NCBI GenBank assembly: GCA_048886185.1
Contig: JBHLKY010000028.1
Location: 1 to 32,000 of the forward strand
DNA length: 32,000 bases
Direction: 5' to 3'
DNA from: Candidatus Hermodarchaeota archaeon
GTDB lineage: Archaea; Asgardarchaeota; Heimdallarchaeia; Hodarchaeales; Hodarchaeaceae
The stretch's first letter is position 1; each line of letters begins with the position of its first letter. Below, one piece after another: positions 90 through 16,896 of the stretch. The notes beneath the pieces were generated by a model that saw only the letters and a program-made list of their open reading frames with translations, did no database searches and was not told where the DNA came from. The translations under genes and the position numbers were made by a program.

Positions 90-2204
90 TTAAAAATCCT
101 TCTGAGTTTTTCTAAACTCTTTGAAAACAACAATTGAGGGAATAGCAATCAATATACTACCTAGGATTAATACAATTGGACCATAGGGGAAAAAATGACC
201 TGTCATTCTATTATAAATAATCAGAGAGCTTTTGATTCCGTCTTCATTCTCAATAACGAGTTCGATAGTTGTTAAACTGGACGGAAGATTATTCAGTGAA
301 ATTTCTATAACCTTTGATTGCCATTGAGGTAGAAATTCAAAAGATTTCTGATAAAATTCTTCACTATCTAAGATTATTTTTATTGTCCCTAATGAAGTGA
401 ATTCTTGTTTAAAGGTATTCCAAGTTGAAAGATTGATCCATAAAGTTCCCTCAGCTAAATTAAGAAGTTTCTCATGGATAGTAATTAATGGTTCCTCATA
501 AAATCTTTCTACTCGCTGAACCCAATAATAGGAATTATTTTTTCCAGGAATTTGTAATTCCCAAGCAATAGTACCATTCTTCGTTACTTCAGTTATAATT
601 ACTGGATCACGTAGGTTGAGAACCAGGCCTTTATCACCAAAAGTACCAAGTGTATTTCCATTCGGTAATCTATCTGCATCTCCGCCTGATTCAGGGAAAT
701 AATAAGATTCATTTTGTGGTACCCATGACCATGTTTCCTTCATTATTTGATTTTCCTCATCTATTTCAAATTCCAATAGCCTCGAATAACCAGAAGAGTT
801 TTCTATTGTCATCGTGGAGGGATTAGATCTATTAAATAGATCGTTATCATAAATAATGAAGCTATTCGAGTCTAACCGCTCTAAACCATGGGGATGCCAG
901 AAAAGAGTATCTACCTCTGCACCAGATTCATCAAGTAATAAAAATTCCCCACCACGTCCAGCGTCCCAGATTACTTCACCTGTAGTGTAATTAATCTTTA
1001 AAATTGTATCTAAATTACGAACATTCAGATATATTACGTCTTGGGTTTTATCCCATACAAAACTGTTAGAATGCATCCAATCGGCTCCCCCACGGAATGT
1101 CTCGTTTATACCTAAGCTATTGTGACGTGTAGCATTAAACGGGAAATGAATTCGGGGATCCCATTGCCATACTTCTTCGCCTTCTCTGGTATATTCAGTA
1201 AGAAGGTCATAAATTACTCTTTTCCCATCCCATATTTCGTCAGAAAAGATGTATTCCAGCACCATAAAAGTTTCTGAAGAGGGATTATAGTCAAGATCAT
1301 GATGGCCGCACGGTACATCTAATGTTTCAACCTTACCTGTTTTATAGTTCCATAATTCCATAAAACCAGGATCTTGTCCTCCCATCATAATAGTAGTTGA
1401 ATTCATGAATTTATGGACTGAATGTCCAGAATTTCCGAGTTTTGCGATAATTTTCCCTGCATGATTTACAATGAAAACTGTACCTGAACCTATTAATGAC
1501 TTATGTTGCTCCCCAATGTGATCGGGATTAATAGTAACATTTATGCAGGGAAACAGGGTTAAACCCTTGTCGATATAAAGATCTCTATTATCAGAGGTGA
1601 TTTGAAAGGTTGGCCCACCAAATAAAGCTGGAGTATATGTATCCATAACAGTGGCACTAACTACCAATGTGATTTGAGAAACTTTGAGTGCATCATTGAA
1701 TGGACCTTCGTATGTCAAATCACCTTTCAGAAATGCTGATAATGGAGTTTCAATTTGTTTCAGTATATCTTTGAAGGTTTTGAAATTTAATCTGATAACT
1801 AAACCATAGTTCAGGGGAGGGGTTGGTCCAACTTCAACAACCGCTGTATCTTTACTAATTATCCACCACATGTTATAGGTAGAGTTTTCAATATCAAAAA
1901 GGACTGTTTGTTCCCAATTTTTAGCTAATGCTATGATATCTGGGCAATTATCAGCCATCCAATTACTAAAATCAAGGAATCCTTGTTTGTCTTCCTCCAA
2001 TGAAAACGTATCATTTTCTAATTTTTCTCTAATGTCATTTCTAGTGAGAATAATGTACTCTGGGGCCTCATCTAAGTTGAATGGTTTAGCTCTTTCCCCC
2101 ATCTTCATTACATTCGAGATCAGCAGAATCACTGGAATACTAGCAATAATTACAACAATACTGAGGATCAGGAGGATTTTTACAGATTTTCGCATGGATT
2201 CCAC
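90..2204 (-). CDS. Membrane-anchored SCP2 (sterol carrier-like) domain + arylsulfate sulfotransferase (ASST)-like beta-propeller fusion
   Basis: N-terminal TM (ILLILSIVVIIASIPVILLI). SCP2-like segment at about aa 70-182 (TVLFDI..WWII..LVIRLNFKTFKDIL..PLSAFLKGDLTYEG..ALK). ASST motifs GHHDL, DWMHSNS, NVRN, WHPHG, YDND, GDADRLPNGNTL. C-terminal TM followed by basic tail KEFRKTQK. Start is GTG 2204 or ATG 2195. Confidence 0.8.
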   Translation of the reverse strand: MESMRKSVKILLILSIVVIIASIPVILLISNVMKMGERAKPFNLDEAPEYIILTRNDIREKLENDTFSLEEDKQGFLDFSNWMADNCPDIIALAKNWEQTVLFDIENSTYNMWWIISKDTAVVEVGPTPPLNYGLVIRLNFKTFKDILKQIETPLSAFLKGDLTYEGPFNDALKVSQITLVVSATVMDTYTPALFGGPTFQITSDNRDLYIDKGLTLFPCINVTINPDHIGEQHKSLIGSGTVFIVNHAGKIIAKLGNSGHSVHKFMNSTTIMMGGQDPGFMELWNYKTGKVETLDVPCGHHDLDYNPSSETFMVLEYIFSDEIWDGKRVIYDLLTEYTREGEEVWQWDPRIHFPFNATRHNSLGINETFRGGADWMHSNSFVWDKTQDVIYLNVRNLDTILKINYTTGEVIWDAGRGGEFLLLDESGAEVDTLFWHPHGLERLDSNSFIIYDNDLFNRSNPSTMTIENSSGYSRLLEFEIDEENQIMKETWSWVPQNESYYFPESGGDADRLPNGNTLGTFGDKGLVLNLRDPVIITEVTKNGTIAWELQIPGKNNSYYWVQRVERFYEEPLITIHEKLLNLAEGTLWINLSTWNTFKQEFTSLGTIKIILDSEEFYQKSFEFLPQWQSKVIEISLNNLPSSLTTIELVIENEDGIKSSLIIYNRMTGHFFPYGPIVLILGSILIAIPSIVVFKEFRKTQKDF

Positions 2205-2317
2205 ACATTAGGAGATATAATAAAAACGTTTTGTTATATTAGTGGACTAATATCTTCAATATACAGTCAGTTCTTGAGTAACTTCATTCTATATTTAGTA
2301 CAGGAAGTATAGAGCTA

Positions 2318-3496
2318 TTAAAGAGTGTAATGATACTTCTTGGCGACTTTGCTGGTGATTCGAATTATGTCATCTTGTTCTTTTTCTGTGAATCTTGTTT
2401 TATAATAAGTAGGCCTACTTAATCGTTTACAATAATATTCTTTTACTCTGTCAAATTTCTTAGGATCCACTTCTATATGATCGATGATTTTATCAATCGT
2501 TGAATTTGATTTCTCGCAAAGGTCTTCATATCGAATCACAAGTGATGCCTTAGCTAAATTTAAATTAGATCGTAATTTTTCATGAATGTAGTTATACACC
2601 TCTGCCCAATAAATAGCCCAACCTTCGATATATGTGTCTTTCCGAAACCATGCCTGCCGAATTCTTTGGATCATTTCATGATTATCTAAATTCACACAAA
2701 CTCGAGCCGAACCAAACTCTCTATGCCCAATTATTTTAGTCCAATCAAGAAGTTTTGGGTCGTTATGTTCTAATTCTTTAAGAATGCCATCTTGTTTGGT
2801 TAATGAGGCAATATGATCGAAAGGATTGCGTACAACGATGAGAAATTTTACATCTGGAAACAATTTCTGTAAATATTCCATTCGGGCGACATTATAGTTG
2901 TTTTTTGCTAAATAGCGATATGCTTTTTGATTAATCAGTAATTTCTTGATGTGTTGTTGATAGAAGGTCTCGAATTGGATGTTCTTAACGTGAGCATCTA
3001 GTATATTTGAATTAGCTTCGTCGTGAGGATTGTCAAAAAATTTCTGCCAGAAAATTTCCTCAACTGCCTCCGGACTATCACGAGTAACCACTATTCGATC
3101 CTTATGTAATCGCTCGACTGGTGATGTCATCATGGGTGTTAAATCTGCAACTTTTTGGGTCCAATGGGGCGTATAAGGAAGAACCATATGCAAGTACCTA
3201 TGTGTTACTATCTCAGGATGCTTACTAAGCATTTCAAGGGTAATTGTTGTTCCTGCTCGAGCTAGTCCTGTGATATAAATCGGACGATCAATAAAAGTCT
3301 GTTCTAGAGCGTGTTTTAATTGAAATGATTCGATAGTATGAACCATGCTCGCGAGGAAAGGAAATTCATGAAAAAACTTAACTATAAAATACATTGGCAC
3401 AGGAAAATCGAATTCTTTGTATTTCTTTGTTTTCGTTTGTTTAATTTTAATCAATGCATTTTCCACAGTTTTTCTGGTTCTTGCTGTTAATTTCAA
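2318..3496 (-). CDS. PAPS-dependent sulfotransferase (P-loop sulfotransferase family)
   Basis: 5'-PSB loop IYITGLARAGTT; 3'-PB motif IVVRNPFDHIAS; LAKN and IRYEDL motifs. TTG start is uncertain. Confidence 0.88.
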   Translation of the reverse strand: MKLTARTRKTVENALIKIKQTKTKKYKEFDFPVPMYFIVKFFHEFPFLASMVHTIESFQLKHALEQTFIDRPIYITGLARAGTTITLEMLSKHPEIVTHRYLHMVLPYTPHWTQKVADLTPMMTSPVERLHKDRIVVTRDSPEAVEEIFWQKFFDNPHDEANSNILDAHVKNIQFETFYQQHIKKLLINQKAYRYLAKNNYNVARMEYLQKLFPDVKFLIVVRNPFDHIASLTKQDGILKELEHNDPKLLDWTKIIGHREFGSARVCVNLDNHEMIQRIRQAWFRKDTYIEGWAIYWAEVYNYIHEKLRSNLNLAKASLVIRYEDLCEKSNSTIDKIIDHIEVDPKKFDRVKEYYCKRLSRPTYYKTRFTEKEQDDIIRITSKVAKKYHYTL

Positions 3497-3731
3497 GTCT
3501 ATATGATTCTACATTGATATGATAATAATTATTTAAATGTGTGATGCTAAAATCTGGAGCCATAGCTAATAGAAAGTGAATTTCCTGCTCATATAATTGA
3601 TCTTTAAAGGAATTTTAATAGTAATCTTTGTGAGAAGTATCGAAGGTGAAAAGATTAGAATATATCTTGAGTAATTATAAATGGACTTTAATTCCATTTT
3701 TGTAAAAATTATCTTAAGGATTGTACGAAAT

Positions 3732-5636
3732 GTGACATCTAATAGCTCCAAAAAGGAATCTAAAGGAAGAACATTTAAATTTCAAGCTGAAATCCAACGA
3801 GTTTTGGACATTCTGATAAATCGGTTATATAAAGATCGTGAAATATTCTTACGCGAACTACTATCAAATTCTGCTGATGCTCTCCATAGAATGCGAATCG
3901 TTCAGCTCGAAACTAAAGATCCTATCATTGATCCAGAAATTGAACTTGGAATAAAGATTACCTTTGATGAAGATGAAAACACTCTCACAGTTACCGATAC
4001 TGGAATTGGGATGACTTACCAAGAAATCAAAACAAATCTTGGAACAATTGCTCAAAGTGGTACTTTAGAATTTCTAAAACAGATAGAAGAATCTCCTGAT
4101 GCAATTCATTTGATTGGTCAGTTTGGTGTTGGATTTTATAGCTCCTTTATTGTTGCAAATGAAGTGATTGTCCGGTCTCGGTCATATCATACAGATTCGC
4201 GAGGAGTTGAGTGGTCCTCTGATGGATCAGGGAACTTTTCTGTTGCTTATAAAGATAAATCTGAAAGAGGAACGGATGTAATTCTCCATCTCAAAGATGA
4301 TGCGAAGGAATTTGCTAACAGGTTTAAAATTGAATCTATTGTTAAAAAGTACAGTGATTTCATTGGTTTTCCTATCCGAATTGCAAATGATGATCAGATT
4401 GTGAACCGTCAGATCCCTATATGGCATCAATCAGAAGATGAAGTCAATGATGAAGAATACAACGATTTTTATAGACAAGTAAGCTTAGATTGGGTTGAAC
4501 CATATCATCGAATTCAGCTGAGTGTTGATGCACCAATTCAATTTAAAGCGTTGCTTTACTTACCTAAGCAGCGTAATCGAATGATGATGACCTCTATGTA
4601 TCAGGATTATGGTCTTCGATTGTATAGTAAAAAGATCTTAGTCCAAGAGAAAGCAAAAGATCTTTTACCCGAATATCTTAGGTTTATTTTTGGTGTTGTG
4701 GATTCAGAAGATCTCCCTCTTAATGTATCCCGAGAAGTGATCCAAGTTGATCGAACTATTCGACGTATATCAAAAGTGATCACTGGGAAAATACTAGATG
4801 AGCTTGAGAAGGTTGCTGATGAAAATGAGGAAAAATATTTAGAGTGGTGGGAGCAATTTGGTGTTTTCATAAAGGAAGGTATAACTCAGGATGAAAAGCG
4901 ACGAAAAAAGCTTTTAAATCACCTTAGAGTTCGAACATCAAAATCAGAAGATCATCTAGTAACACTTACGAAATATGTCGAGCAAATGCCAGAGGAACAA
5001 GAAGAAATACTCTTCCTCTTAGGTGATAACCTTCAAACACTCAAACACAGCCCACATTTAGAATATTATAAAAAATTGGATCATGAAGTAATTCTTTTCA
5101 CTGAACCAATAGATAATTTTGTAGTTATGCATGTTACTGAATTCCAAGGTAAGAAATTCAAAGCCATTGATCAAGCAGAACCCGAATCGTCTAAAATTAA
5201 AGATGAAGAAGAAGAAGGAACTGAACAGGAGGACGTGGGAGAACCTGAAAAAGATAATTTTTTAATTCGTTTGAAAGAAATATTAGAAGACCGAATCATT
5301 GACATTCGATATACAGATCTCTTAACTGATAGTCCTTGTCGTCTTGTGAATCCTAGTGGAACTACTGCTTTTACTCGAGTGTTAAAGTACATGGATGAAA
5401 ACTATATTCCTCAAAAGAAAATAATGGAAATCAATAAAGATCATATTCTTATAAAACAATTAAAAACTCTCTTTGAAAAAGACTCTGAGTCTCCTCTTCT
5501 TCAGACATATATTACACAATTGCTTGAAAATCAAGAATTAGCGGAAGGAATTTTACAAGATCCAACCAATATGATCAAACGTGTGAATAAGTTATTAGAA
5601 CAGGTATTAGAAGTACAATTAGATTCTAGTAACTAA
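3732..5636 (+). CDS. htpG: Hsp90 family chaperone HtpG
   Basis: FQAE, IFLRELLSNSADA, DTGIGMT, NLGTIAQSG, IGQFGVGFYSSF, LPLNVSRE (catalytic Arg), SPHLE. The ORF opens at 3681; GTG 3732 is preferred because AAGGA lies upstream. Confidence 0.97.
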   Translation: MTSNSSKKESKGRTFKFQAEIQRVLDILINRLYKDREIFLRELLSNSADALHRMRIVQLETKDPIIDPEIELGIKITFDEDENTLTVTDTGIGMTYQEIKTNLGTIAQSGTLEFLKQIEESPDAIHLIGQFGVGFYSSFIVANEVIVRSRSYHTDSRGVEWSSDGSGNFSVAYKDKSERGTDVILHLKDDAKEFANRFKIESIVKKYSDFIGFPIRIANDDQIVNRQIPIWHQSEDEVNDEEYNDFYRQVSLDWVEPYHRIQLSVDAPIQFKALLYLPKQRNRMMMTSMYQDYGLRLYSKKILVQEKAKDLLPEYLRFIFGVVDSEDLPLNVSREVIQVDRTIRRISKVITGKILDELEKVADENEEKYLEWWEQFGVFIKEGITQDEKRRKKLLNHLRVRTSKSEDHLVTLTKYVEQMPEEQEEILFLLGDNLQTLKHSPHLEYYKKLDHEVILFTEPIDNFVVMHVTEFQGKKFKAIDQAEPESSKIKDEEEEGTEQEDVGEPEKDNFLIRLKEILEDRIIDIRYTDLLTDSPCRLVNPSGTTAFTRVLKYMDENYIPQKKIMEINKDHILIKQLKTLFEKDSESPLLQTYITQLLENQELAEGILQDPTNMIKRVNKLLEQVLEVQLDSSN

Positions 5637-5782
5637 TGTGTCAGCAATGTATTAGCAACTGAAGATTTTAGCTTTTAATGAGTGGAGTTATAAATGAAAA
5701 GAAGTAACCAATAGCATATATATTTACTAAGAAAAACTTAATGAAAGACGAAAATTAAAGGAAAAACAAGTTTATTTAGTGG

Positions 5783-6817
5783 ATGCTTATTTATATGTCA
5801 ACGAATGATACATTAAAGGGAGAAGCTTTTACTGATGGATTAATAGTGACTATTTTTGATGATTCTGGGCCTCGAAATATCTATAATTCTTCCCCTTTAA
5901 CTGAAGAAGAAGCTTTCAATCTTGCTATAAAATCATTAACTGCTTTGAGTTCTGATATTCCCAGAATGGGGGAGATTCGTTCTTATGGCCCAATACCAAC
6001 ACCTCGTGATCCTTTTTCCACAATCGGGTTTATTTTGACTTTAAAAGCAGTGGGTTCTACAGACATTCGTATTACTCAGTTTGGGAGAATTGTTGTTTTT
6101 TGGGTTATTACCCGTTCAAGTTCTGCGGTAAAGTATGTCGGAGTCCTAAAACAAATGTTACGGAGAACTATCCGCTCATATAAAATACTGACGGATAGAG
6201 ATCTGCAAGAGAAAGGATTTTTAGCTAAAATTGATGAGAAATTAAAGATTGTTGAGACGGGGGTTGACTCGTATTATTTCTCAGATAGGGAGACATTTGA
6301 ACCATTTTTAGAACTTGCCCTCATTCCTGCAAACGCTCCTATTATGCTGGTTGATAAGCCAAATAAACAGGTAAATGTTTTGGTTCAAGAAAATATTTCA
6401 CCTTCTCTGAAAGTTAATTTACTCCATCATGTTAGGAATTTCACAAGCCAATTACCTAAGGGGTCTCTCTATAAAATTGAAATCATATCAGATACACTGA
6501 TTGTAAAAAGAATTCTATCAAAATCTGGGTTAATATCAGAAGTGGATTCAGGAATTAGATATCGGATTCGTCTCACAGATGAGTTAACTTTTGAAGAGGT
6601 TGATGAATACCTAGATTTTCAATTTAGTCCTAAAAGACAAACATTAACCACACTTATTATCCAATCCCATGAGAAAAAAGCTCCATTAAACCTTGGAGAA
6701 GCAGCAATTCAATCTGGGGTCTGCGAAAGATTAGTTGAAGAGTTCATTGTGAGTTTAATAAGTGCAGGCCTCATAAAAAATGGGAAAATCGAGAATGGTT
6801 ATTTGATTTACAGTTAA
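5783..6817 (+). CDS. uDENN/longin-like N-terminal domain protein with C-terminal winged-helix/PCI-like domain (NPRL2/FLCN-like architecture, inferred)
   Basis: IVTIFDDSGP (F-x-x-x-GP beta-hairpin), helix AFNLAIKSLTAL, YGPIPTP, then strands IGFILTL and IVVFWVI. The C-terminus LGEAAIQSG..VEEFIVSLISAGLIKNGKIENG resembles a winged helix. Alternative start ATG 5795. Confidence 0.5.
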   Translation: MLIYMSTNDTLKGEAFTDGLIVTIFDDSGPRNIYNSSPLTEEEAFNLAIKSLTALSSDIPRMGEIRSYGPIPTPRDPFSTIGFILTLKAVGSTDIRITQFGRIVVFWVITRSSSAVKYVGVLKQMLRRTIRSYKILTDRDLQEKGFLAKIDEKLKIVETGVDSYYFSDRETFEPFLELALIPANAPIMLVDKPNKQVNVLVQENISPSLKVNLLHHVRNFTSQLPKGSLYKIEIISDTLIVKRILSKSGLISEVDSGIRYRIRLTDELTFEEVDEYLDFQFSPKRQTLTTLIIQSHEKKAPLNLGEAAIQSGVCERLVEEFIVSLISAGLIKNGKIENGYLIYS

Positions 6818-6841
6818 TAGAGAATTAGGGAAAATAAATCA

Positions 6842-7747
6842 TTACAATAACTTACTTATTATTTCAGCAAGCTGTTCCATCTTTACAAGCACGTACTGGA
6901 GTGGCGCTATCTTTCGGGCTATCCCTGATAGTAGTAATTCATTTCTAAGTTTTTGAAAAATAAAAATATAGTCATTTGTTTCTAAAGTTGTTTTAAAAGT
7001 TTGATCTGAAGCAAATTCGTCGCTGAGTCTATCATAATTTGTCAGCCAGAGATTTGCAGGAAGGATAATACGATCTGCCATTTCTCCTTCTTCAAATACG
7101 GGGAGTCCCTCCTCAGCTGTGTACACTGCGATTCCTGATAGTTCTGTATGTGTGTGAATAAACTCTTGAATAGCTTCGGACACGGTTTTAGCTCTAGTTG
7201 TTTTTAATATTAATGTTTGAACCATTTCTCCTACTGCTAGGAAAATAGAATTGTCATGAATCGATGTCCCACGATAATGAATGTTAAATACTCCTCCTTC
7301 AGAAACAAAATAATTTTCCATAGTTTGAATTACTTGTTTTTTCATATCTGGTAATAATAGATCAATTTTATGGAAAAGACAAAAAATTTCAGCATCAGGT
7401 GAGTATTCACTTAGTCTTTTGACAGCATGATCAAAATAGAATTTGGAGGTACTGACAGCATCAAAATTACTTACATCTACTACCCAAACCAATATACTCA
7501 CTTCATTAAAGATAAATTCCGCTTGTTCACCAACAAAAACAGAAATGAATGATTCCTGACCTCCACAATCAAAAATTTGGAACGCGCTGTCAATTATATT
7601 TTTGGTGGATCGTGTGTAATTAATTGTCGCCTTATAATCCTTAACATCTTCTACTGATTTTCCTTCAAAGACTATGGAGCGGATACTACTTTTACCACTG
7701 GCCCCAAGTCCCATGAAAAGAACTTTCTGCTTTGCCACCGTGGACAC
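6842..7747 (-). CDS. Rag/Gtr1-family (RagA-like) small GTPase with C-terminal roadblock domain
   Basis: G1 MGLGASGKSS, G2 ATI, G3 DCGGQ, G4 HKID (within SPDAEIFCLFHKIDL), G5 TSIHD, then a roughly 120-aa roadblock-like C-terminus. GTG start with GAGGA RBS. Confidence 0.92.
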   Translation of the reverse strand: MSTVAKQKVLFMGLGASGKSSIRSIVFEGKSVEDVKDYKATINYTRSTKNIIDSAFQIFDCGGQESFISVFVGEQAEFIFNEVSILVWVVDVSNFDAVSTSKFYFDHAVKRLSEYSPDAEIFCLFHKIDLLLPDMKKQVIQTMENYFVSEGGVFNIHYRGTSIHDNSIFLAVGEMVQTLILKTTRAKTVSEAIQEFIHTHTELSGIAVYTAEEGLPVFEEGEMADRIILPANLWLTNYDRLSDEFASDQTFKTTLETNDYIFIFQKLRNELLLSGIARKIAPLQYVLVKMEQLAEIISKLL

Positions 7748-7754
7748 AATATAA

Positions 7755-7759
7755 TCCTC
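7755..7759 (-). promoter_or_regulatory. Shine-Dalgarno site of the Rag-like GTPase gene
   Basis: GAGGA on the minus strand, 7 nt before GTG 7747. Confidence 0.6.
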
Positions 7760-8150
7760 TTAATCCTGAATGTTTTTTGGGTATTTTATTAATAATGAGT
7801 TATTAGAAATTCAGGTTTTAATATATTGTTTTAAGATATATAAAATATCCTCATTATTCTCTCTTCAATCGCATTTAACTTATCGATGTATATAGCAAGC
7901 TTGTAAATTTATTTCTATAGATTTTTTTGTCTTGAAATTTTGATATCTTAAATTCCTTATAATGATAAAACTGTAAGCAAAATAAAAATTACTGACAATA
8001 TCGGAATTCGAATATTGAGTGATTAATTGATTACACAATTTGCCAAACAATTTTACGGATTAATGGCAATTTAGTGAATGGGTTTCTGATACAGAATTAA
8101 CAGTATAACTTAAAGAATATTTAGCTTTTTTTAAGTCATCATAAATCATT

Positions 8151-9467
8151 CTAGTATTCACTTATGATATGTTCAGCCAATCTCTTGGCAAATGCCATGA
8201 GTGTCAACACTAAAGGTCCTCCTAAAGAGCGTGGTAAAATACTTGAGTCACATACATAAAGATTAGGGATCTTTGTCTGAAGATTAGAATCTACTATATC
8301 ACCAATGCTATTTGAACCTCCAGGATGAGCACCACGGATAGTAGACGAAAAAATGTGGTTTGGTTTAGATCCTGCTTCTAATAAAACTTCCTTTGCTAAG
8401 GAGGTACCTTCTTCAAGACGTTTGTAATCTTCATCTGTCAATTTTTTAGTAATATTTATCCCAAATCTTCCTGTTGATATAGAACCATTCTTTTCATCTT
8501 GTATCTTTGACATGATCCCCATTAAGCTATGATAATGTCGAAATTTCAAAACTTTCAAAGGATTACGTTGGTAAAGAAAGGTTATCAAAAATAATCCCCA
8601 TGGATCTACAACTGGGCTTTGCATAATTCCCCTCTCTTCATGATATTTGTATGTCCCAACAGCCATGGGGATATTATGGATAGTTCGATGAGCTTTTTCT
8701 GATGTTACTCCATATGTGAATATTAAAGGGTCCATAAAAAAGTTCCTCCCAGCTTCTTTAATGCCTGACTTTTGTAGTAAAATAGGTGAGTGAATTCCTC
8801 CTCCTGAGACAATAATGTTAACCCCTTTAATTGTGTGTCCTCGCTTAGGTTTTACACCAACAGCCTTTCCTCCCTCAAATATTATTTGGTCTACCTCTTT
8901 TTTCTGGATCTCGAGACCCTGTGTTTTCGCTTCAATGATCAAGTTTCTTGCTGTGAATTTGGCATTTCTTTTACAACCCAACATACAGGCAGAACAGTTA
9001 GGAATGCAGTTCTTTGGATCAATGAATTTTGGTAAACGGATCCATTCCTGATCAAGTTGGTTGCCCGCTTCTAAAAGGTGAAGATTCCCCTGGCCGATCA
9101 AATCATCTGGTAGAATGGTTGTTTGGGTCTCTTTTTCTGCTTCGTCTAATTCTTGCTCGAGATCTATCCCCCAATGAGAGAAGAATTTTCGGGAGGGGCG
9201 AAACGCGGTTCCTGCACTAATCACTGAAGATCCTCCTACTGTAATACCGGATGCAACAAATAAATGCTCCTTCGTATAGCGAAATCCTTTTCGATCAACT
9301 ATTCTCAATGCTGCTACATGATTCCCTAGAAGACGATGATTTCCACCTTTTTCAAGAAGAAGAACATCTTGGCCTGCTTTTGTGAGATCGTGTGCAAGAG
9401 TTGCTCCTGAAATACCTGCTCCCACAATTAAGGTATCATAGACATTAGTCAAGGATTCTTGTCTCAT
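8151..9467 (-). CDS. GMC family FAD oxidoreductase
   Basis: IVGAGISG dinucleotide-binding motif, VGGSSVISAG, CIPNCSACMLGC, VSGGGIHSPILLQKSGI, HPGG, NLYVCDSSILP..PLVLTLMA. Confidence 0.9.
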   Translation of the reverse strand: MRQESLTNVYDTLIVGAGISGATLAHDLTKAGQDVLLLEKGGNHRLLGNHVAALRIVDRKGFRYTKEHLFVASGITVGGSSVISAGTAFRPSRKFFSHWGIDLEQELDEAEKETQTTILPDDLIGQGNLHLLEAGNQLDQEWIRLPKFIDPKNCIPNCSACMLGCKRNAKFTARNLIIEAKTQGLEIQKKEVDQIIFEGGKAVGVKPKRGHTIKGVNIIVSGGGIHSPILLQKSGIKEAGRNFFMDPLIFTYGVTSEKAHRTIHNIPMAVGTYKYHEERGIMQSPVVDPWGLFLITFLYQRNPLKVLKFRHYHSLMGIMSKIQDEKNGSISTGRFGINITKKLTDEDYKRLEEGTSLAKEVLLEAGSKPNHIFSSTIRGAHPGGSNSIGDIVDSNLQTKIPNLYVCDSSILPRSLGGPLVLTLMAFAKRLAEHIISEY

Positions 9468-9476
9468 TCCATTCTT

Positions 9477-10214
9477 TTATGGTTCTGTTTTATCAAAAGA
9501 AGCTTGGGAAAAGTTAACTTTAAAGCCTATTCGGTTTAAATATTGGAGAAAATTGACTGCTTCTTCATTTGCTGTCGTTTTAAAGCTAACTACTACAGGA
9601 GGTACAATTTCAGATAACGCAGTTTGTGCTAATCTTGTTGGAGTGGATTTTGTTTTCGATAAACGATCCTCTACAATTCTATTTCGAATAATAGTTGTTT
9701 TATCGTCAAATCTAATGTAAGTAAAACCCAAAATATCATCATCCCCTTCTGAATTACTTATGGGTTTTTCTTTTGTTATAAATTCAAGAATTGTATCTTG
9801 GAGTTTACTTCCTGTTTTATACGCTATTTTCGCTAGATCGTCAATACTTTGAACAAGGCCGTTTATCATGCCTTTTCTTTCTCCTTTTTTGTTTAAGGCG
9901 ACTGTACTATATGTAACAGTATAATAATTAGGCTCAAAAATCATGTTGAAGCGAGGTGGATATCCGATTTGATCTTTAATTAAGCGGTACGCAAAAGAAC
10001 CTCCTGGGATTAAAGAAAGCAGACCATGAAATGCAGATTCAATAGCAATGATTTTAGCTACTTCCGCTATTCCCTCAATATTTTGTTTATTGATCCAGAA
10101 ACAGCGTGGTTTTCTACTTTTTAGTTCTCCAGCAATAAGATATCCTTGGTAAACTTCTAGGGCTACTGGGCTTTTAAATTCAAGATATATACTTGCGAAT
10201 TGCTCAATCCTCAT
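9477..10214 (-). CDS. Hypothetical protein, probably co-transcribed with the GMC gene
   Basis: 245-aa ORF with GAGG upstream of the ATG; its stop is 9 bp from the GMC start. No motif recognised. Confidence 0.7.
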   Translation of the reverse strand: MRIEQFASIYLEFKSPVALEVYQGYLIAGELKSRKPRCFWINKQNIEGIAEVAKIIAIESAFHGLLSLIPGGSFAYRLIKDQIGYPPRFNMIFEPNYYTVTYSTVALNKKGERKGMINGLVQSIDDLAKIAYKTGSKLQDTILEFITKEKPISNSEGDDDILGFTYIRFDDKTTIIRNRIVEDRLSKTKSTPTRLAQTALSEIVPPVVVSFKTTANEEAVNFLQYLNRIGFKVNFSQASFDKTEP

Positions 10215-10561
10215 TAGGAATCCTCAAATGTGGTTATTCATCTTTCTTTTTAAGGAAAAATCTGAGTATGCTATGTGAAATGGTCCTTTCATCGTATAAA
10301 TGTACTGTAGGTGTAAAAATATAACAATTTAATCCATTTTACTAGATTTAGTAAATAAAGCAATCTTATGCAACAGTTAGGTCTTTATTACACTTAACAT
10401 TTAAGCGCTTTCCTCTTTCAAGTCAGAAATTATAATCATTCTTAACTATCTCCTTTCTCCACTTATTAAACGAAAATAATCTTGATTATCTAAATAAATG
10501 AACATACACTTCAATTATAAGCTACATCACATATCAATGATAATTTTTGCTAGTTGTTTTG

Positions 10562-10906
10562 CTAGACCCGAACTAAAACAATATTTTTAGTATCACTTAA
10601 AGTAAAACTAACTACTGCGTTTTCTCCTGCATTAAGGATAACAACAAACCCATTCTCCCCTGTAAGTATAATTTCTTGAATACTACCCCGATTAAATTCG
10701 GTTAAAACACGTTCAGATAATGAATGGCTTGCAGCAGTCATCGCAGCGATGACTATTTCGTTTTCATCCGATGTGGATGTGATTGGAAGTCCATCTGGGC
10801 TAACAACCGTAATAGCTTGAATAGAGGAGGATTTCGCAAAATACTTCTCTAGAATTCCCCCTAGTTCTCTATAATTAGAACTTATTCCTTTGATTGTATC
10901 AATCAT
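10562..10906 (-). CDS. Roadblock/LC7 (MglB/LAMTOR-like) protein, apparently truncated by a -1 frameshift (restored end would be 10527)
   Basis: IQAITVVSPDGLPI, IAAMTAASHSLSERVLTEF, IQEIILTGENGFVVI, AVVSF. The last helix is missing in frame but GLAKQLAKIIIDM* is encoded in the -1 frame. Confidence 0.88.
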   Translation of the reverse strand: MIDTIKGISSNYRELGGILEKYFAKSSSIQAITVVSPDGLPITSTSDENEIVIAAMTAASHSLSERVLTEFNRGSIQEIILTGENGFVVILNAGENAVVSFTLSDTKNIVLVRV

Positions 10907-11291
10907 GAAGAATCACAGGATTGTTCATGATGACTCAATCCTTCTTTGATTCATTAACTTCACTAGAGAGATTGTTATTATATTCGTTAGAAAGTCTATT
11001 TAAAATGTAGAATACCCTAATCAAATGAAACTTGTTCTTTACATGCAAAAAACCCAACAATTTGATAGATGAATAGAATTATGACACAAAAAAGATTGGT
11101 TGTACTTCGATTCTTTCAAAATTGTTAAAATAAGAAACCCAAGCAAACAATCATAAAGAAGGTATTCTTATTTGAGAAAGGTATTTATTTATCTTAGTAT
11201 TGTTAAGAATTTAACAGAGTATTAATATGCATATAAAAGGCTAAATTCTCACTAAAAGGAATATGACGACTCCAACACTTCGGTGCTCTGT

Positions 11292-12878
11292 ATGTCTGAA
11301 CAAATTAAAATCATCCTATTTAAAGGCCCTCATTGTGCTGCATGCCATCCCGTTTTACGTCATTTAAAGCGAATAGTTGACACATCTCAAGGTGGGGCAG
11401 CCTTAACTATTATAGACACTGACGAAAATCGAGAAATCGCTACTAAATATGGTGTATTTAATGTTCCACACGTGCTTTATAATGATGAGGTCATCCTAAC
11501 AGCAACGCAAGCAGCATCTATGTTTTCAAGTTTTTCAACTGAAGATACAGAATCTCCCACCATGTTTTCACCTGATCAATATGATTTATTCAATTATCTT
11601 TTTAATAAGCTAATTGAGGCGGGAGTTAAGGCGAGCGAGACGGATCGTGATCGTTGGCGTAAATTATCAATCATTAGTGTCTCTGAACGGTTATTAAATA
11701 TTGAAGAACTTGAGACAGTGACCCGTCCCTCTGTAGGCGATTATGTTCATATTGGACATCTTCAGTCTATTGTGACTTCTCTTTTAGCTATTAATCCGAG
11801 CGCAAAATCTTATCTATTTCGTTCTGGAGAATTAGCTGGAAAATTTGGATCAGCTCAGTCTTGGATTCATAGGTATAATCCTAAGATTATGGAAACTCAT
11901 CGAATGAAATCTCGCTTTAAAGAAATGCTAAAGGGATTCAAGATTCTATATGGGCCAAACCCTGAGGGCCTTAATATCTCATCGGAGCCTACTGTCACTC
12001 AAATTGCTCCTTACCATGCTAAATTACAAATTAAAGATTCTGGTCTTGCAGTGATGAACCATGATATTGGCCAAGATGTTTGTGGATTTATATCTGGTGA
12101 AATTGCTGGATTGATGGAAGTGACGTTAGGTGAAAAAGCTTCTGTTGTAGAAACAAAATGTTGGGGAATGGGCGATGATTATTGTGAATTTGACATAAGA
12201 CTCGGTGAAGAATCAACACATTATCGTCCATCCACCCTTGAGTCAAAGGAATTCTTCAGTGATTCTGACCGACTCCGTTTTGATGTTTCATTATCAACTA
12301 TTTCTCGGAATATGTTTGATTCAGTCCTCTTTCGTAGAAGAATGAGACCAGCTATTGGAGATTATTGTCATATCTCGGTTTTACAGCATATCATTACCTC
12401 TGTTAAATTTTCTGATCCATTTAATTCAACTTTATTGGCATACGCAGGTCAAAACTATGGTCAAATCCTAGAAGATGTGGGAAGTATCAGTCGAATTATG
12501 ATGAGGCAGAATCTGAATTATGCGTTTCCAATGGAATTTCCACAAGCTTGTGAAGTATTAGCACATTATTTCAATAAAAGAGGACATTTAACTAGAATAC
12601 ATGGGGATGTAACAGTCGAGATAATCGATGATGAATCAGCAATTTTCAGAATTTGGGAAAGTGCTGAAACATCTGGCATTGATTTATCAACAGTTGACCT
12701 CTCAGCCCTTTTTCCAGGCATAGAAAAGCCAACCAAAGTAAATACTTTGGATGATTTTATGGCAGGTTTCCTGAACGGGAGATTAAACTTATTGGTAGAG
12801 GATGAGATCATTGTCAGGGAGATAAACTGTCAGGCAAATGGTCATCAGTACTGTGAATTTGAAGCAGAGCTAGATTAG
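11292..12878 (+). CDS. Thioredoxin-like domain fused to two tandem V4R-type domains
   Basis: ILFKGPHCAACHP and VFNVPH (CxxC plus cis-Pro). Duplicated RP(S/A)(V/I)GDY.HI..LQ.I.TS units. V4R signatures CGFISGEIAG..VVETKCWGMGDDYCEF and DDFMAGFLNG..VREINCQANGHQYCEF. GGTG lies before ATG 11292; the ORF track start is 11283. Confidence 0.85.
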   Translation: MSEQIKIILFKGPHCAACHPVLRHLKRIVDTSQGGAALTIIDTDENREIATKYGVFNVPHVLYNDEVILTATQAASMFSSFSTEDTESPTMFSPDQYDLFNYLFNKLIEAGVKASETDRDRWRKLSIISVSERLLNIEELETVTRPSVGDYVHIGHLQSIVTSLLAINPSAKSYLFRSGELAGKFGSAQSWIHRYNPKIMETHRMKSRFKEMLKGFKILYGPNPEGLNISSEPTVTQIAPYHAKLQIKDSGLAVMNHDIGQDVCGFISGEIAGLMEVTLGEKASVVETKCWGMGDDYCEFDIRLGEESTHYRPSTLESKEFFSDSDRLRFDVSLSTISRNMFDSVLFRRRMRPAIGDYCHISVLQHIITSVKFSDPFNSTLLAYAGQNYGQILEDVGSISRIMMRQNLNYAFPMEFPQACEVLAHYFNKRGHLTRIHGDVTVEIIDDESAIFRIWESAETSGIDLSTVDLSALFPGIEKPTKVNTLDDFMAGFLNGRLNLLVEDEIIVREINCQANGHQYCEFEAELD

Positions 12879-14174
12879 TTCTATTTGGTCAAATATCTCA
12901 TCTTTTTTTTCACTTCGATAATTTAAATATAAAAGAGATGTAAAAGAAATTATAATCAGACCAACAATACTTATTATTGCAGAGATAGGAAAAAACGGAT
13001 TGGATAAGTAAGTTTCATACCCTTCAATTGACCAAAGTATGGACCAGAAGCCATAACCAAGATAAACAAAGAAAAGGCCAACAATTAGCATTCCAGGGAA
13101 CAAATTACTCTTCTTCTGTTCTTCAGGACTAGAATAATCAGCGATTAAAAAAAACAAACTAATAGTGAAAAATGGGAAGAAAAATGGGATGTAGTGAGGA
13201 TATAAAATTCGGTTAAAAGCCATAAAAATGGTCATAAAGGGGAGAACAGCTTCAATGAGTGTTCTAGATTTCGTTACAGGTACTTTAATAATCAAGAATA
13301 TGAGGTACAATCCAATAAAGACTAATTGAATAATAAAAGGGATGAGTGTTGCTGAAAGATCTTGGAGGAAATAAGTGTATAAGGACATACTTGGATCAGG
13401 CCTTTCAACATGAATAAGAAAAACATCACTGAGATACTCTACGGGGGCTAATAATAGAAAAGGAAGCGATCCAAGTAGAAATGTGATACCTGTAATTGCC
13501 CAAGGAATAATCGATTTAATTTCACGCATATGAACACCCCAAACTAGAATTGGTAACATGTAGATTCCCGCTATTGGTTTTACTAACAATGCGAACCCGA
13601 AAAATAAGCCACTTTTGCAATTGTTGTTATTTCTAAGCAAAATGAATCCTAATAGTACAAAAAAAATCATAAAATTTTCATGATATCCACCAAAGATGAC
13701 CCCGAGCGTTGAAGGGTTCAATAAAAACCAGTTCATGGCTGTTAGCGCAAGAAGGTTTCCTTTAGGATGGGATTGAAGATAATCTTTAATTATTAAATAT
13801 ATTAAGATTCCTACAATTAGGTTTACTATAATAAGAAACAACTTGGCCGTTTGCCATGTGAAAACATCCACTCCAATTATAGCTATTAAAAGCCCAAGAG
13901 TATATAGATAAAGGGGTGGATATTGTGGCCGAGGAAGTTCAACGCTATCTGTCATGAATTTTCCAATATCGCGATAAAGTAGTTTTCCTTGTGCAATCTT
14001 TTTAGCAGCCTCAAACTGAAGAACAAAATCCACAGGATTATAATAGACTAAGCCCAAAATCAAGTGAATAACTAAATTACAGGACAGTGAAAGAAGAAAC
14101 CATCTATATTTCTTGTTGAAATTGAGGTTAAATAAATAAAAAGGGGATTTTTTGTCAACCAGTCTATTCAACAT
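12870..14174 (-). CDS. GT-C fold integral membrane glycosyltransferase (GT87/DUF2029 or PIG-M-like)
   Basis: About 10-12 hydrophobic segments; first-loop motif DFVLQFEAAKKIAQGKLLYRD..QYPPLY; G..HE, LVKP and FNRILYPHY motifs. Overlaps the convergent V4R gene by 9 bp. Confidence 0.75.
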   Translation of the reverse strand: MLNRLVDKKSPFYLFNLNFNKKYRWFLLSLSCNLVIHLILGLVYYNPVDFVLQFEAAKKIAQGKLLYRDIGKFMTDSVELPRPQYPPLYLYTLGLLIAIIGVDVFTWQTAKLFLIIVNLIVGILIYLIIKDYLQSHPKGNLLALTAMNWFLLNPSTLGVIFGGYHENFMIFFVLLGFILLRNNNNCKSGLFFGFALLVKPIAGIYMLPILVWGVHMREIKSIIPWAITGITFLLGSLPFLLLAPVEYLSDVFLIHVERPDPSMSLYTYFLQDLSATLIPFIIQLVFIGLYLIFLIIKVPVTKSRTLIEAVLPFMTIFMAFNRILYPHYIPFFFPFFTISLFFLIADYSSPEEQKKSNLFPGMLIVGLFFVYLGYGFWSILWSIEGYETYLSNPFFPISAIISIVGLIIISFTSLLYLNYRSEKKDEIFDQIELI

Positions 14175-14353
14175 CCATTTACGCTGTGCATTGAATCTAA
14201 CTTGTATTTTAGAATGTTTTCAAATCTCTTAATTTAATTCAGTATGTATATTAAAAAAACAAAAAAACAAAAGAATATTTGTTACTTCAGTAATTTAGTA
14301 AGTGTATTCCTGGTTTAATTCAGTTATTAATCTCTTCAGGATGTCATAGAACT

Positions 14354-15118
14354 ATGGTTAAAAAAAAGCCTCAATGTCCCCAGATGGCATTCTTTATTGT
14401 CAGTCATGGGATTCCTACTGTTTCATTGGGTTTTTCCAGCGAACAGAGTCTCCTTTTTGGTGGAATCTTAACTGCTATCAATTCCCTCACACAATCAGAG
14501 ACTGGAATGGGACAATTAAATGACATCCAAGCGAAAGAAGGACGAATTTACATTCAAAACGCTGGCCAAGATGCTTTGGTGGGATTCTTTGTTTGGAGTA
14601 AAACAGGATTCCCCCAACAGATAAGCCAGCAGATGAGAGTACTTGCTGGAGGACTAGGAGCAAGATATTTATCCGATTACATATTCAATTCTGCATTTGA
14701 AGAAATCTTAATGGTGGGATCACTACCATCTAAGTTTCAAATCAAATTAGGTTACCAATCTATTTTCAATTGGCGTAAACAGCTGAGAGATTCACCTTTT
14801 CACGTAACTGACACCTTAGAAGAGCAGCTTAGAAATGTTGATCGGTCAATCTTTGAGAAGTTAGGATTAGCCCTCTCTGACCTGACATTTCCAGAGAGGA
14901 TAGAAAATGCGATTGATTCGGCCGTATGGTTCGCACTTGAGTCAGCTCTCGAAGATAGTGTTTCTTCCCTCATTACGGCTCGTAATATTGATCAAATAAT
15001 CCCTAACCTGCGCTTAAAAATAAAAAATTTAATGGCTGAAGAAATTAAACAACGTGGACCAGCTGCTCTTCTAAAAAAAGCACTCTTACAAGGAGTTGTA
15101 TTTGATTGGCCTCCATAG
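14354..15118 (+). CDS. Longin-like domain protein
   Basis: beta-beta-alpha-beta-beta-beta-alpha pattern: FFIVSHGIP, LLFGGILTAINSL..E.GMGQLNDI, RIYIQ, LVGFFV, followed by a helical C-terminal half. Confidence 0.55.
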   Translation: MVKKKPQCPQMAFFIVSHGIPTVSLGFSSEQSLLFGGILTAINSLTQSETGMGQLNDIQAKEGRIYIQNAGQDALVGFFVWSKTGFPQQISQQMRVLAGGLGARYLSDYIFNSAFEEILMVGSLPSKFQIKLGYQSIFNWRKQLRDSPFHVTDTLEEQLRNVDRSIFEKLGLALSDLTFPERIENAIDSAVWFALESALEDSVSSLITARNIDQIIPNLRLKIKNLMAEEIKQRGPAALLKKALLQGVVFDWPP

Positions 15119-16896
15119 AAAGTATTACTGCAGGAAAACTCCTTCAGGAATTCATTAAAGGATATGAAGATGATCCTTTTGGGGAGCAGGGCTTAGTAAT
15201 TGTAAAACAATTATTAGATCTAGCTTTTCCCAACCAATCTCTCGCTGAAATACTCTCATCTAAAGAGCTTCTAGAACTGTTAACAGTTGCAGCAACAGAG
15301 TACAATTTCCGAAAACAACCTTTTTTCTTAGCTTTTACTAGTTTTCTTATGGAAAAAACTTCACGAGAACTCCAAAAAATGGATGGTGTTCAATTAAAAA
15401 AGGAATTGGCCAATTTACTTAAAGAAGACACTCGTTTACCAAACCTAGAAATAGATCGAGCCGCTTATGATTTATCTGGGAATCCTGAGTCAGCATCATT
15501 AGCTCGAAACATGTTAGAAAGAGCATTGATTAGTACTACAGCCTCATTATTCGGGTATCTATTAATACAAGAAGAGAATCGGGCTGGGAAGTTTTTTCAC
15601 AATTTAAACAGTAATTGTAGATTCTTTGCACAACGTGTTAGAAAAATAAATACACTTTCAATCATTCTCAAAGAGCTCGTAAACTTTAATTGGCGATGGT
15701 TTTCGATGGTAGGATCTTTACCTACTCTAGAAGATTTAGGAATAAATGATATTTGTAAATACGTTGAAGAACAACCTCAAGCATATATGGAGAAAATTCA
15801 AGCTAAATTCTTTGAAAAACTTGAAAAAGAGTTCAGAAATCCGTTAATGTCTTTGATAGATAAGTGTAGGACTCAGGTTGAAAACCAAAATACTAATTTT
15901 ATGCTAGAAATCGAGTTTGATTTTATCCAATTTGAAAATATTAAGGAAAAAATAATTCGTGATTTAACTAAACTTCAATCTCGAGTCGAAAGTGGTAAAA
16001 AAGTTTCTGCTAAAGAATTTGAGTCAATAAAAGAGAACCTTGAAAAGGAATATAACAAAATAAAGCAAGATATTATCAAAGAATTTACAAATTTCATGAA
16101 ACAAGTGAAACTATCAACGGAACCTCCATGGTTTAAATTTTATAAGCAGGAATTACAATGGGAGTTAGAATCATCAGTAGTTGTAATGGAGGAACTTAAT
16201 GACCAACTGTCATTAAATAATGCGTTTCGTAATGAAAAAAAATCAAAATCCCTCCAGATTGCGCTTGCTATTTTTACGCAGCTTGGAGGGATCCATTTTG
16301 CATTAGAAAACATAATTGCTCACTATTTCTATGAACGTATTCCCTCTAAGCTATTAAGGTTACTTGAGACACCTACGAAACGTCAAAAAATCAAAGAACT
16401 TAAATTTCTTAAAGAAAAACATTATAATGAAGGATTAGACGCAGTTAGTTCGTTTCTTGTTCCATATTCAGAGACCATTATCTCTGGCCTTCTTACATTA
16501 GGAATTTCACAAATAAAAGAATTCTACATCAAAGATAATCCTATAGTATTCATTGATGAAGAAGATCCTAGAAATCCAAAGTATTTGGATATCTTGACTG
16601 TCCCTAGGGAATGGTTTGAGGAAAAACCTCCTGAATCCTATTTTGGAGATGAATATTTTAGTTTTCTGACGAATGAGAACCTAATTAAAGTGGGATTTCG
16701 GCTAAAATCCTTAGATGGGAAAGGTAATAATTTCTTCAAATTAATTGTGTCCTCCACTGCATTAGAAAATGCTCAGATTTATAAAAAGGCAACAAAAATT
16801 CTTGGAAACTTTTCTGGTTATGTCTTTTCAACCGCAATAGGAAATATGAAGGTGTGTCCCCCTGCCCTTAAAGCTGTTGATGATCTTTTTATGTGA
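15106..16896 (+). CDS. Hypothetical alpha-helical / coiled-coil protein
   Basis: 596-aa ORF rich in L/E/K with a heptad-like central region. TTG start overlaps the upstream gene by 13 bp, indicating an operon. Confidence 0.75.
   Translation: MASIESITAGKLLQEFIKGYEDDPFGEQGLVIVKQLLDLAFPNQSLAEILSSKELLELLTVAATEYNFRKQPFFLAFTSFLMEKTSRELQKMDGVQLKKELANLLKEDTRLPNLEIDRAAYDLSGNPESASLARNMLERALISTTASLFGYLLIQEENRAGKFFHNLNSNCRFFAQRVRKINTLSIILKELVNFNWRWFSMVGSLPTLEDLGINDICKYVEEQPQAYMEKIQAKFFEKLEKEFRNPLMSLIDKCRTQVENQNTNFMLEIEFDFIQFENIKEKIIRDLTKLQSRVESGKKVSAKEFESIKENLEKEYNKIKQDIIKEFTNFMKQVKLSTEPPWFKFYKQELQWELESSVVVMEELNDQLSLNNAFRNEKKSKSLQIALAIFTQLGGIHFALENIIAHYFYERIPSKLLRLLETPTKRQKIKELKFLKEKHYNEGLDAVSSFLVPYSETIISGLLTLGISQIKEFYIKDNPIVFIDEEDPRNPKYLDILTVPREWFEEKPPESYFGDEYFSFLTNENLIKVGFRLKSLDGKGNNFFKLIVSSTALENAQIYKKATKILGNFSGYVFSTAIGNMKVCPPALKAVDDLFM

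Follow-up and report, generated by a model that had tools for sequence, protein, structure and literature searches.

The closest described precedent for the gene pair reported here is the three-part sulfation relay of the caprazamycins in Streptomyces sp. MK730-62F2, formed by Cpz6 (a type III polyketide synthase, PKS), Cpz8 (a sulfotransferase dependent on 3'-phosphoadenosine-5'-phosphosulfate, PAPS) as well as Cpz4, a PAPS-independent arylsulfate sulfotransferase (ASST) (PMC4257720, PMC6731281, PMC13426309). The natural donors and acceptors of most exported ASSTs are unknown; in the E. coli enzyme (EcAST, or AssT) the active site comprises His252, His356, Asn358, Arg374 and Thr501, and it is His436 that becomes sulfurylated (PMC13426309). 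Here we describe a related pair in an Asgard archaeon, Candidatus Hermodarchaeota archaeon (assembly GCA_048886185.1, contig JBHLKY010000028.1). The window that we analysed is the first 32 kb of this contig (C28) of a 4.84 Mb genome in 75 contigs (G000), and it carries a gene for a PAPS-type sulfotransferase (ST), P0002, beside one for P0001, a surface ASST with an SCP2 domain. That the two genes form one module is well supported, and, by analogy with the Cpz system, we lean slightly towards the view that the product of the ST is the sulfate donor of the ASST and crosses the membrane to reach it. In what follows, G-numbers denote related genomes, L-numbers denote the loci compared, and congeners are genomes of the same genus as that of the window.

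Both genes, and all their features given below, lie on the minus strand. The ST gene (2318..3496) is an open reading frame (ORF) of 392 aa from a TTG codon; its likely start is the TTG at 3452-3454, 14 codons later, which agrees with public gene calls and yields a protein of 378 aa. The ASST gene (90..2204) is an ORF of 704 aa from a GTG codon, with orthologs beginning at M4 instead. The two co-oriented ORFs, with the ST upstream and a gap of 113 bp, had been pointed out in an initial annotation of this DNA, and the coordinates bear this out. Since the contig ends 89 bp beyond P0001, nothing is visible downstream of it in the assembly. The source names attached to the closest homologs are Hodarchaeota, Heimdallarchaeota and Promethearchaeota. 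These names, and a gene content that includes a Gtr1/RagA GTPase, Roadblock and Hsp90, point to an Asgard archaeon of the Hodarchaeales type.

P0002 has the properties of a soluble PAPS-dependent enzyme, as the initial annotation had supposed. It matches Sulfotransfer_3 (PF13469; 7e-21, 75.9 bits) and Sulfotransfer_1 (3e-6), and both PAPS-binding elements are recognisable: a 5'-phosphosulfate-binding loop, TGLARAGTT (3245..3271), which aligns to the TPST loop GGVPRSGTT, and a 3'-phosphate-binding motif, RNPFDHIAS (2804..2830), which aligns to 'VRDGRASVHS' of TPST. Residues R80, G82, T83 and T84 of the former and R223, P225, H228 and S231 of the latter are invariant in 11 ST orthologs. The AlphaFold2 (AF2) model has a pLDDT of 76, and its top 50 Foldseek matches are all PAPS-dependent sulfotransferases, led by mycobacterial Stf1 (2zq5) and Stf9 (2z6v) and also including TPST. 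Hydropathy analysis reveals no hydrophobic segment. For the first 75 residues no Pfam match appeared, even with the E-value limit relaxed to 1, and NCBIfam offers no useful equivalog for either P0002 or P0001. Taken together, sequence and model give good support for a cytoplasmic PAPS-type enzyme, encoded by the sole Sulfotransfer_3 gene of G000.

P0001 consists, in order, of a transmembrane (TM) helix, an SCP2 domain, an ASST beta-propeller, an Ig-like stalk, a second TM helix and a basic tail, and its AF2 model has a pLDDT of 87.9 and a pTM of 0.82. Near the N terminus, a TM helix or signal anchor spans residues 8-33 (2106..2183); it follows the sequence MRKSVK, reaches a Kyte-Doolittle peak of 3.25 and is modelled as a helix over residues 6-35. 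The SCP2-fold lipid-binding domain (residues 49-187; 1644..2060) gives a Pfam SCP2 match at residues 93-178, with an E-value of 1.5e-4 for the whole protein and 5e-5 for the isolated segment; the alpha/beta pattern of the model agrees with this assignment, and the profile search matches a fatty-acid-binding protein (PDB 4jgx) and an SCP2 structure (4uei). The propeller (residues ~200-570; 495..1607) contains the Pfam Arylsulfotrans match (PF05935, residues 244-557), which covers model positions 31-370 of 374 with an E-value of 2.4e-27 and 96.4 bits against a cut-off of 24.2. It is followed by a C-terminal beta-sandwich stalk (residues 573-665; 210..488) that is all-beta, is modelled with pLDDT >90 and remains without a Pfam match up to an E-value of 1. 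Finally, the C-terminal TM anchor with its basic cytoplasmic tail (FPYGPIVLILGSILIAIPSIVVF-KEFRKTQKDF; 93..191) has a Kyte-Doolittle peak of 2.65 and a modelled helix at residues 675-702.

The nearest PDB entries to P0001, both by sequence and by fold, are those of Cpz4 (9kf4/9kf6; phmmer 4.9e-4, profile 4.7e-7), with the E. coli ASST structures ranking after them. Foldseek scores 3e-22 for Cpz4 (9kf4) and 6e-15 for E. coli ASST (3elq), and the top 11 matches (E 3e-22 to 5e-14) are all chains of these two proteins. The homologs of P0001 fall into 96 clusters, all of ~700 aa, and every name given by the source is that of an Asgard lineage.

We then compared the active site of the propeller with that of E. 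coli AssT, scoring conservation over 44 P0001 orthologs of 42-73% identity. The sulfurylated His436 corresponds to H439 (888..890), which is invariant (44/44), and P0001, E. coli AssT and Cpz4 agree in having this histidine 14 residues before the (F/Y)DN motif. In a hidden Markov model alignment, H378-S-N380...R396 (1017..1073) takes the place of His356, Asn358 and Arg374: 'GADWMHSNS..NVRN' of P0001 is aligned on 'GRNWAHVNS..SSRH' of E. coli AssT, with a His-to-Arg spacing of 18 in both, and H378 and R396 are kept in all 44 orthologs and N380 in 42. The pair H301-H302 (1299..1304) lies in a GHHD motif that is invariant in 44/44 and aligns to the HD of Cpz4; from this motif, H302 is probably the equivalent of His252. 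Thr501 is replaced by a serine, S506 (687..689), with 'YYFPES' aligned on 'FYSPIT501', and this residue is again invariant in 44/44. By sequence, a complete ASST catalytic site in P0001 is therefore well supported, with the AssT active-site positions present and the catalytic histidine fixed among orthologs.

The same 44 orthologs are informative as to topology. The hydrophobic helices of P0001, at residues about 3-36 and 669-697, have basic flanks at both termini; across the orthologs the first 10 residues carry a net charge of +1 to +5, and the last 14 residues have a mean net charge of +3.0. P0001 contains 13 N-x-S/T sequons, where its composition would lead one to expect 6.2 +/- 2.2. Its density of 1.85 sequons per 100 aa compares with a range of 0-1.16 for the 19 other proteins encoded in the window, and seven sequon positions are conserved, each in 29-43 of the 44 orthologs. 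Because of the basic termini, the sequon excess and the periplasmic location of EcAST, the SCP2 domain, propeller and stalk are predicted, with good support, to lie outside the cell and to be held there by an anchor at either end. The initial annotation had proposed TM segments at both ends and, from the basic tail, an outward-facing catalytic region. Hydropathy peaks and modelled helices agree on the former, and for the latter the prediction can now draw on both basic termini, the roughly two-fold sequon excess and the seven conserved sequons.

P0001 is one of five ASSTs in this genome. The four further ASST-like paralogs (531-699 aa; C11:153005-153862, C4:97718-98458, C6:56668-57381 and C32:15154-15864, loci L002-L005) have N-terminal hydrophobic segments, mostly also C-terminal anchors, and the H/H/N/R/H set of catalytic residues, and they lack an SCP2 domain; at the position of S506 they have I, V, V or Y. 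P0001 is thus the only one of the five with both the SCP2 domain and S506, which fits a role of this protein as the entry point for a lipid-borne donor. Larger ASST paralogs of ~1050 aa stand beside the module in some relatives (L032:6036-9194, L035:10110-13283, L060:7806-10982).

Evidence that ST and SCP2-ASST belong together comes from their distribution in a comparison set of 61 related genomes, which are kin, meaning that counts overstate independence. ST orthologs (44-74% identity) are found in 12 of the 61 genomes and a full-length SCP2-ASST in 13, with an overlap of 12; neither was seen in the remaining 48. The one exception is G019, in which a 4.4-kb contig ends within the ASST gene, at residue 57, and thus at the very point after which the ST would come. 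In all 12 genomes with both genes the two share one locus, and in 11 they are directly adjacent. Their order varies: ST precedes ASST in tandem in the window's genus, ASST precedes ST in tandem in G042, the genes are head-to-head in G046, G050, G051 and G055, and in G043 they are 4.4 kb apart with an ASST paralog in between; G055 carries two such pairs. The other neighbours of the pair all differ between these arrangements. The nominal Fisher value for the association is 7e-12, inflated by the kinship of the genomes, and retention through rearrangement is, in our view, the stronger argument for coupling. Conservation of the pairing, which had been left as a check by the initial annotation, thus holds through changes of gene order across the Hodarchaeales/Heimdallarchaeia and Thorarchaeota lineages.

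To place the ST, we assembled a wider set of 80 loci and computed a quick maximum-likelihood tree with IQ-TREE. It resolves three groups: a bacterial clade, an Asgard clade of Heimdall/Hod and Thor sequences that contains the window's ST, and a Loki/Hel clade. Of the 27 loci in the clade of the window's ST, 19 have an SCP2-ASST beside the ST, and nine have the gene for ATP sulfurylase (sat) and/or that for adenosine-5'-phosphosulfate (APS) kinase beside it; the lone locus with none of these is cut by a contig end. Among the Thor genomes in which the ST sits in a sat-APS kinase-ST operon unlinked to ASST, four of five encode an SCP2-ASST elsewhere. No ASST was found within 8-10 kb on each side of the Loki/Hel-type ST relatives (44-51% identity) or at the three distant loci L063, L064 and L066, indicating that the ST-ASST linkage is specific to a clade and not a property of the whole ST family. 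One bacterial bin has an arrangement of its own, in which a 698-aa ASST (PF05935 1.6e-44; N-terminal DUF4842 and DUF4114) overlaps the start of an ST homolog (L125:3075-6402).

A further link is to type III PKSs. In some relatives the module is accompanied by a type III PKS in which the two Chal_sti_synt domains are both present and the Cys/His/Asn triad is intact. In G055 it stands between the SCP2-ASST and another ASST-like gene, directly next to both, in G043 it comes directly after the ST, and in G042 it is head-to-head with a 1058-aa ASST paralog. Among non-congener genomes, a PKS is present in five of the six with the pair (G055, G043, G042, G046 and G051) versus 3 of 33 without it (nominal p = 5e-4). 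The bacterial relatives of the ST echo this association, with a type III PKS directly before the ST in 19 of 19 loci of the Eremiobacterota/Cybelea/Acidoferrum subclade. These tandems of a PKS (~450 aa) and an ST 41-42% identical to P0002 occur in Eremiobacterota (Cybelea, Vulcanimicrobiota) and an Acidoferrum bin (L127-L145, e.g. L129:8673-11206), which are probably producers of sulfated phenolic lipids. We also noticed a second type III PKS subtype, 59% identical to the module-linked one (L057:8323-13992, L058, L059, L061, L062), that belongs to another conserved cluster, with genes for a double 4Fe-4S protein, a protein of metallo-beta-lactamase fold and IMP dehydrogenase, and that has no ASST near it.

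How might the two enzymes work together? The idea of a trans-membrane relay has three sources: the precedent of Cpz, the association with a PKS and the presence of an SCP2 domain. As judged from family and context, the cytoplasmic ST would use PAPS to sulfate a small hydrophobic compound with a hydroxyl group, which in some relatives would probably be a phenolic or pyrone lipid made by the adjacent type III PKS. The resulting amphipathic sulfate ester would then get to the outer face of the membrane, where the surface ASST, held near the membrane by the helices at both of its ends, would take up the ester with its SCP2 domain. The sulfuryl group would be transferred onto His439 in a ping-pong mechanism, as in E. 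coli AssT and Cpz4, and passed on to an extracellular acceptor, which might be a surface glycan, some lipid or a phenol of exogenous origin; having lost its sulfate, the carrier could be charged again. The initial annotation had drawn the analogy to the caprazamycin system, and it has gained substance in that Cpz4 is the top PDB match of P0001 by sequence and fold and that a PKS, in the role of Cpz6, stands beside the pair in some relatives. Taking this one step further, we tentatively suggest, while thinking it would sooner fail than hold, that in Asgard archaea a membrane phenolic lipid sulfate ester serves as a recyclable carrier of activated sulfate, charged inside by the ST, extracted outside by the SCP2 domain and discharged by the five-member ASST family onto surface glycans, lipids or proteins. 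Such a carrier could be likened to the polyprenyl phosphates that carry sugars.

Several points weigh against the relay. Sulfuryl transfer by P0001 and the ST in Asgard archaea is a prediction from sequences and models. No flippase or exporter gene is conserved with the pair among the loci compared. In G000 and 21 congeners (7 of these 22 carry the module) we found no Chal_sti_synt_C match. Co-transcription of the two genes is made uncertain by a possible separate promoter: the 113-bp spacer (2205..2317), whose longest ORF has 6 codons and whose counterparts in congeners are ~50 bp long, holds TTTTTATTATAT ~30 nt before the ATG of M4, which may serve the ASST gene as a TATA box of its own and/or act as an oligo-T terminator. 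Of nine sequencing runs that contain positions 90-3680 in whole or in part, eight are presumably DNA metagenomes, one is of unassigned kind, and none is listed as RNA. The sole closed genome of the genus with the pair, G010 (chromosome CP070695.1), encodes neither sat nor APS kinase, and its SCP2-ASST (L027:7946-10086) is broken in two near residue 484 by a frameshift; this could reflect decay of the module or assembly indel errors. Lastly, no APS kinase was found in the G000 assembly.

For this last point, the state of the assembly offers an explanation. The sat gene of G000 (C6:17-1162, locus L048) ends 16 bp from the contig start, with the synteny upstream of it kept with G017, and three congeners have an operon of sat, a 464-478-aa protein of the type I phosphodiesterase family (PF01663) and APS kinase (L045:5739-8820; L046:3886-6972; L047:824-3906). 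Since the contig breaks where congeners carry the phosphodiesterase and APS kinase genes, the APS kinase gene of G000 most likely lies in an assembly gap. In G019 the APS kinase at the end of the sat operon is 0.9 kb from the ASST gene, and by analogy C6 and C28 of G000 may be neighbours. Removal of 3'-phosphoadenosine-5'-phosphate (PAP) is one possibility for the function of the phosphodiesterase/nucleotide pyrophosphatase family protein. Within the genus, APS kinase is present in 4 of 7 module genomes versus 1 of 15 others, and in Thor loci genes of PAPS supply stand with those of the module, with sat-APS kinase-ST operons and with sat, ST and ASST together at three loci, two of which also have APS kinase.

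The module itself would be compatible with a pathway that involves no relay, and we consider this alternative unlikely, while giving it real weight. The ST product would then be an end product, as are the sulfated adipostatins, and the ASST would bind, trim, redistribute or recycle it. PKS and PAPS-ST pairs that make sulfated phenolic lipids as end products have precedents in AdpST (PMC12135136) and in the Pks18/Rv1373 operon (PMC13141999); moreover, the bacterial ST relatives come with a PKS, but a search of up to 10 kb on each side revealed no ASST, and an SCP2 domain indicates lipid binding, not turnover. What speaks for the relay instead is that the complete sulfo-His site of P0001 suits transfer rather than binding, that Cpz4, its nearest solved relative, takes a PKS-derived sulfate ester as donor, and that the genome encodes, for a single PAPS-ST, four more surface ASSTs with the same catalytic residues, which implies that a donor is needed outside the cell. 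The flow of sulfate could also be the reverse, with the ASST moving sulfate from an environmental aryl or alkyl sulfate onto a lipidic phenol, for detoxification or sulfur acquisition, and the ST acting on the same compounds, possibly backwards to PAPS. Aryl sulfotransferases can indeed run backwards with p-nitrophenyl sulfate and PAP, the organism is known from sediment and estuary metagenomes, and the closed genome G010 has the ST in spite of lacking sat and APS kinase. The natural substrates of exported ASSTs being generally unknown (PMC13426309) also leaves room for such scavenging. We nevertheless regard it as distinctly improbable, given that the sat-APS kinase-ST operons of Thorarchaeota imply that PAPS is made for the ST and that APS kinase tracks the module within the genus (4/7 versus 1/15).

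Two more explanations question the premises of the relay. The propeller might not be a sulfotransferase in vivo at all, acting as a hydrolase, a lectin or a structural surface protein, with a link to the ST that is regulatory or historical. Its identity to characterised ASSTs is only ~15%, the Pfam family is broad, and we found no characterised archaeal member in the literature; conservation of the six active-site positions (five invariant, N380 in 42/44) among orthologs of 42-73% identity, along with near-perfect phyletic co-occurrence with the ST, makes this very unlikely. Pure chance, with ST and ASST as neighbours of unrelated functions, we hardly credit: the pair is kept through four arrangements, in several families and in Thorarchaeota, while other neighbours change, and in 60 of the 61 genomes the two genes share the same fate, gain or loss. 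It is true that the ST-side neighbours in the genus (Hsp90, longin, RagA) are unrelated and that synteny within a genus can be passive.

As for the other genes around the pair, the window at 3681-16896, next to the module, encodes Hsp90, a protein of 344 aa that matches no Pfam family, a Gtr1/RagA-like GTPase, a Roadblock/LC7 protein and a thioredoxin-V4R-V4R fusion; these genes are kept within the genus only and apparently have no tie to sulfation. At the G019 locus (L152, G019:C305:1-4427), a TauE/SafE anion transporter of 264 aa (PF01925, 6.5e-45) is encoded between the APS kinase and the SCP2-ASST and could serve to export or import a sulfur anion. Elsewhere we found no TauE/SafE close to the module except for a weak match (26%) in L079, and an MFS gene is near the Thor ST in one locus only; both were rejected as conserved parts of the module, each being near too few loci. 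In G050 and G051 (L036:11118-13310; L037:7077-9837) the ST is directly followed by genes for a 567-aa cytidylyltransferase-GT28 fusion and a NeuB-type nonulosonic acid synthase, and in congeners PKD-domain surface proteins are encoded near the pair. These local observations hint at a surface-glycan context.

We know of no prokaryotic mechanism for sulfation outside the cytoplasm, where PAPS is absent. If true, the lipid carrier proposed above would be the first extracytoplasmic sulfation route described in prokaryotes and would give a physiological role to exported ASSTs that appear 'donor-less'. The module is a concrete candidate for experiments, with two expressible soluble domains, a defined catalytic histidine and, in relatives, a PKS expected to make the carrier. 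It is spread over Hodarchaeales, Heimdallarchaeia and Thorarchaeota, the archaea closest to eukaryotes. The chemistry of their cell surface has hardly been explored, and surface glycans or lipids carrying sulfate would bear on the interaction of these organisms with their partners. Finally, the SCP2-ASST fusion and the PKS-tied ST clade provide a genome-mining handle on sulfated phenolic lipids.

In our literature search we found no paper on ASSTs or on ST-ASST pairing in Asgard archaea, and the comparison must therefore be made with systems from elsewhere. The E. coli CFT073 enzyme AssT (3elq, 3ets, 3ett, 4p04-07) shares with P0001 the six-bladed propeller outside the cytoplasm and equivalent active-site positions. 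It differs in being a soluble, periplasmic protein with an N-terminal beta-sandwich, no SCP2 domain and no TM anchors; the identity is ~16%. Its gene is found with dsbL/dsbI, not with a PAPS-ST. The alkylsulfatase SdsA1 has an SCP2-like C-terminal domain and resembles P0001, at the level of the SCP2 fold, in joining such a domain to an enzyme acting on sulfate esters, presumably for the recruitment of hydrophobic substrates; its catalytic part is a metallo-beta-lactamase sulfatase instead of an ASST propeller, and the domain order is different. In AdpST with its PAPS cassette (PMC12135136) and in Pks18/Rv1373 of M. tuberculosis (PMC13141999), a PAPS-ST is likewise tied to a type III PKS and to genes for PAPS synthesis, a PKS>ST layout that is shared by the bacterial sister clade of the window's ST. 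These systems end at the sulfated polyketide and have no ASST, whereas the window has an ASST and no PKS.

The Cpz system comes closest, in that it, too, has a PAPS-ST encoded together with a PAPS-independent ASST, Cpz4 being the closest solved relative of P0001, and some Asgard relatives add the type III PKS. The window's ST and Cpz8 are likened here by their type, as PAPS-STs. In contrast to the Cpz system, the window contains no antibiotic gene cluster, no PKS was found in its genus and the host is an archaeon. The Asgard ASST has, moreover, two TM helices that anchor it at the surface, an SCP2 domain and a stalk; given this anchoring, the donor would have to cross the membrane, unlike in the Cpz relay. 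The archaeal, SCP2-fused and doubly anchored ASST would thereby represent a new form of Cpz-type two-step sulfation.

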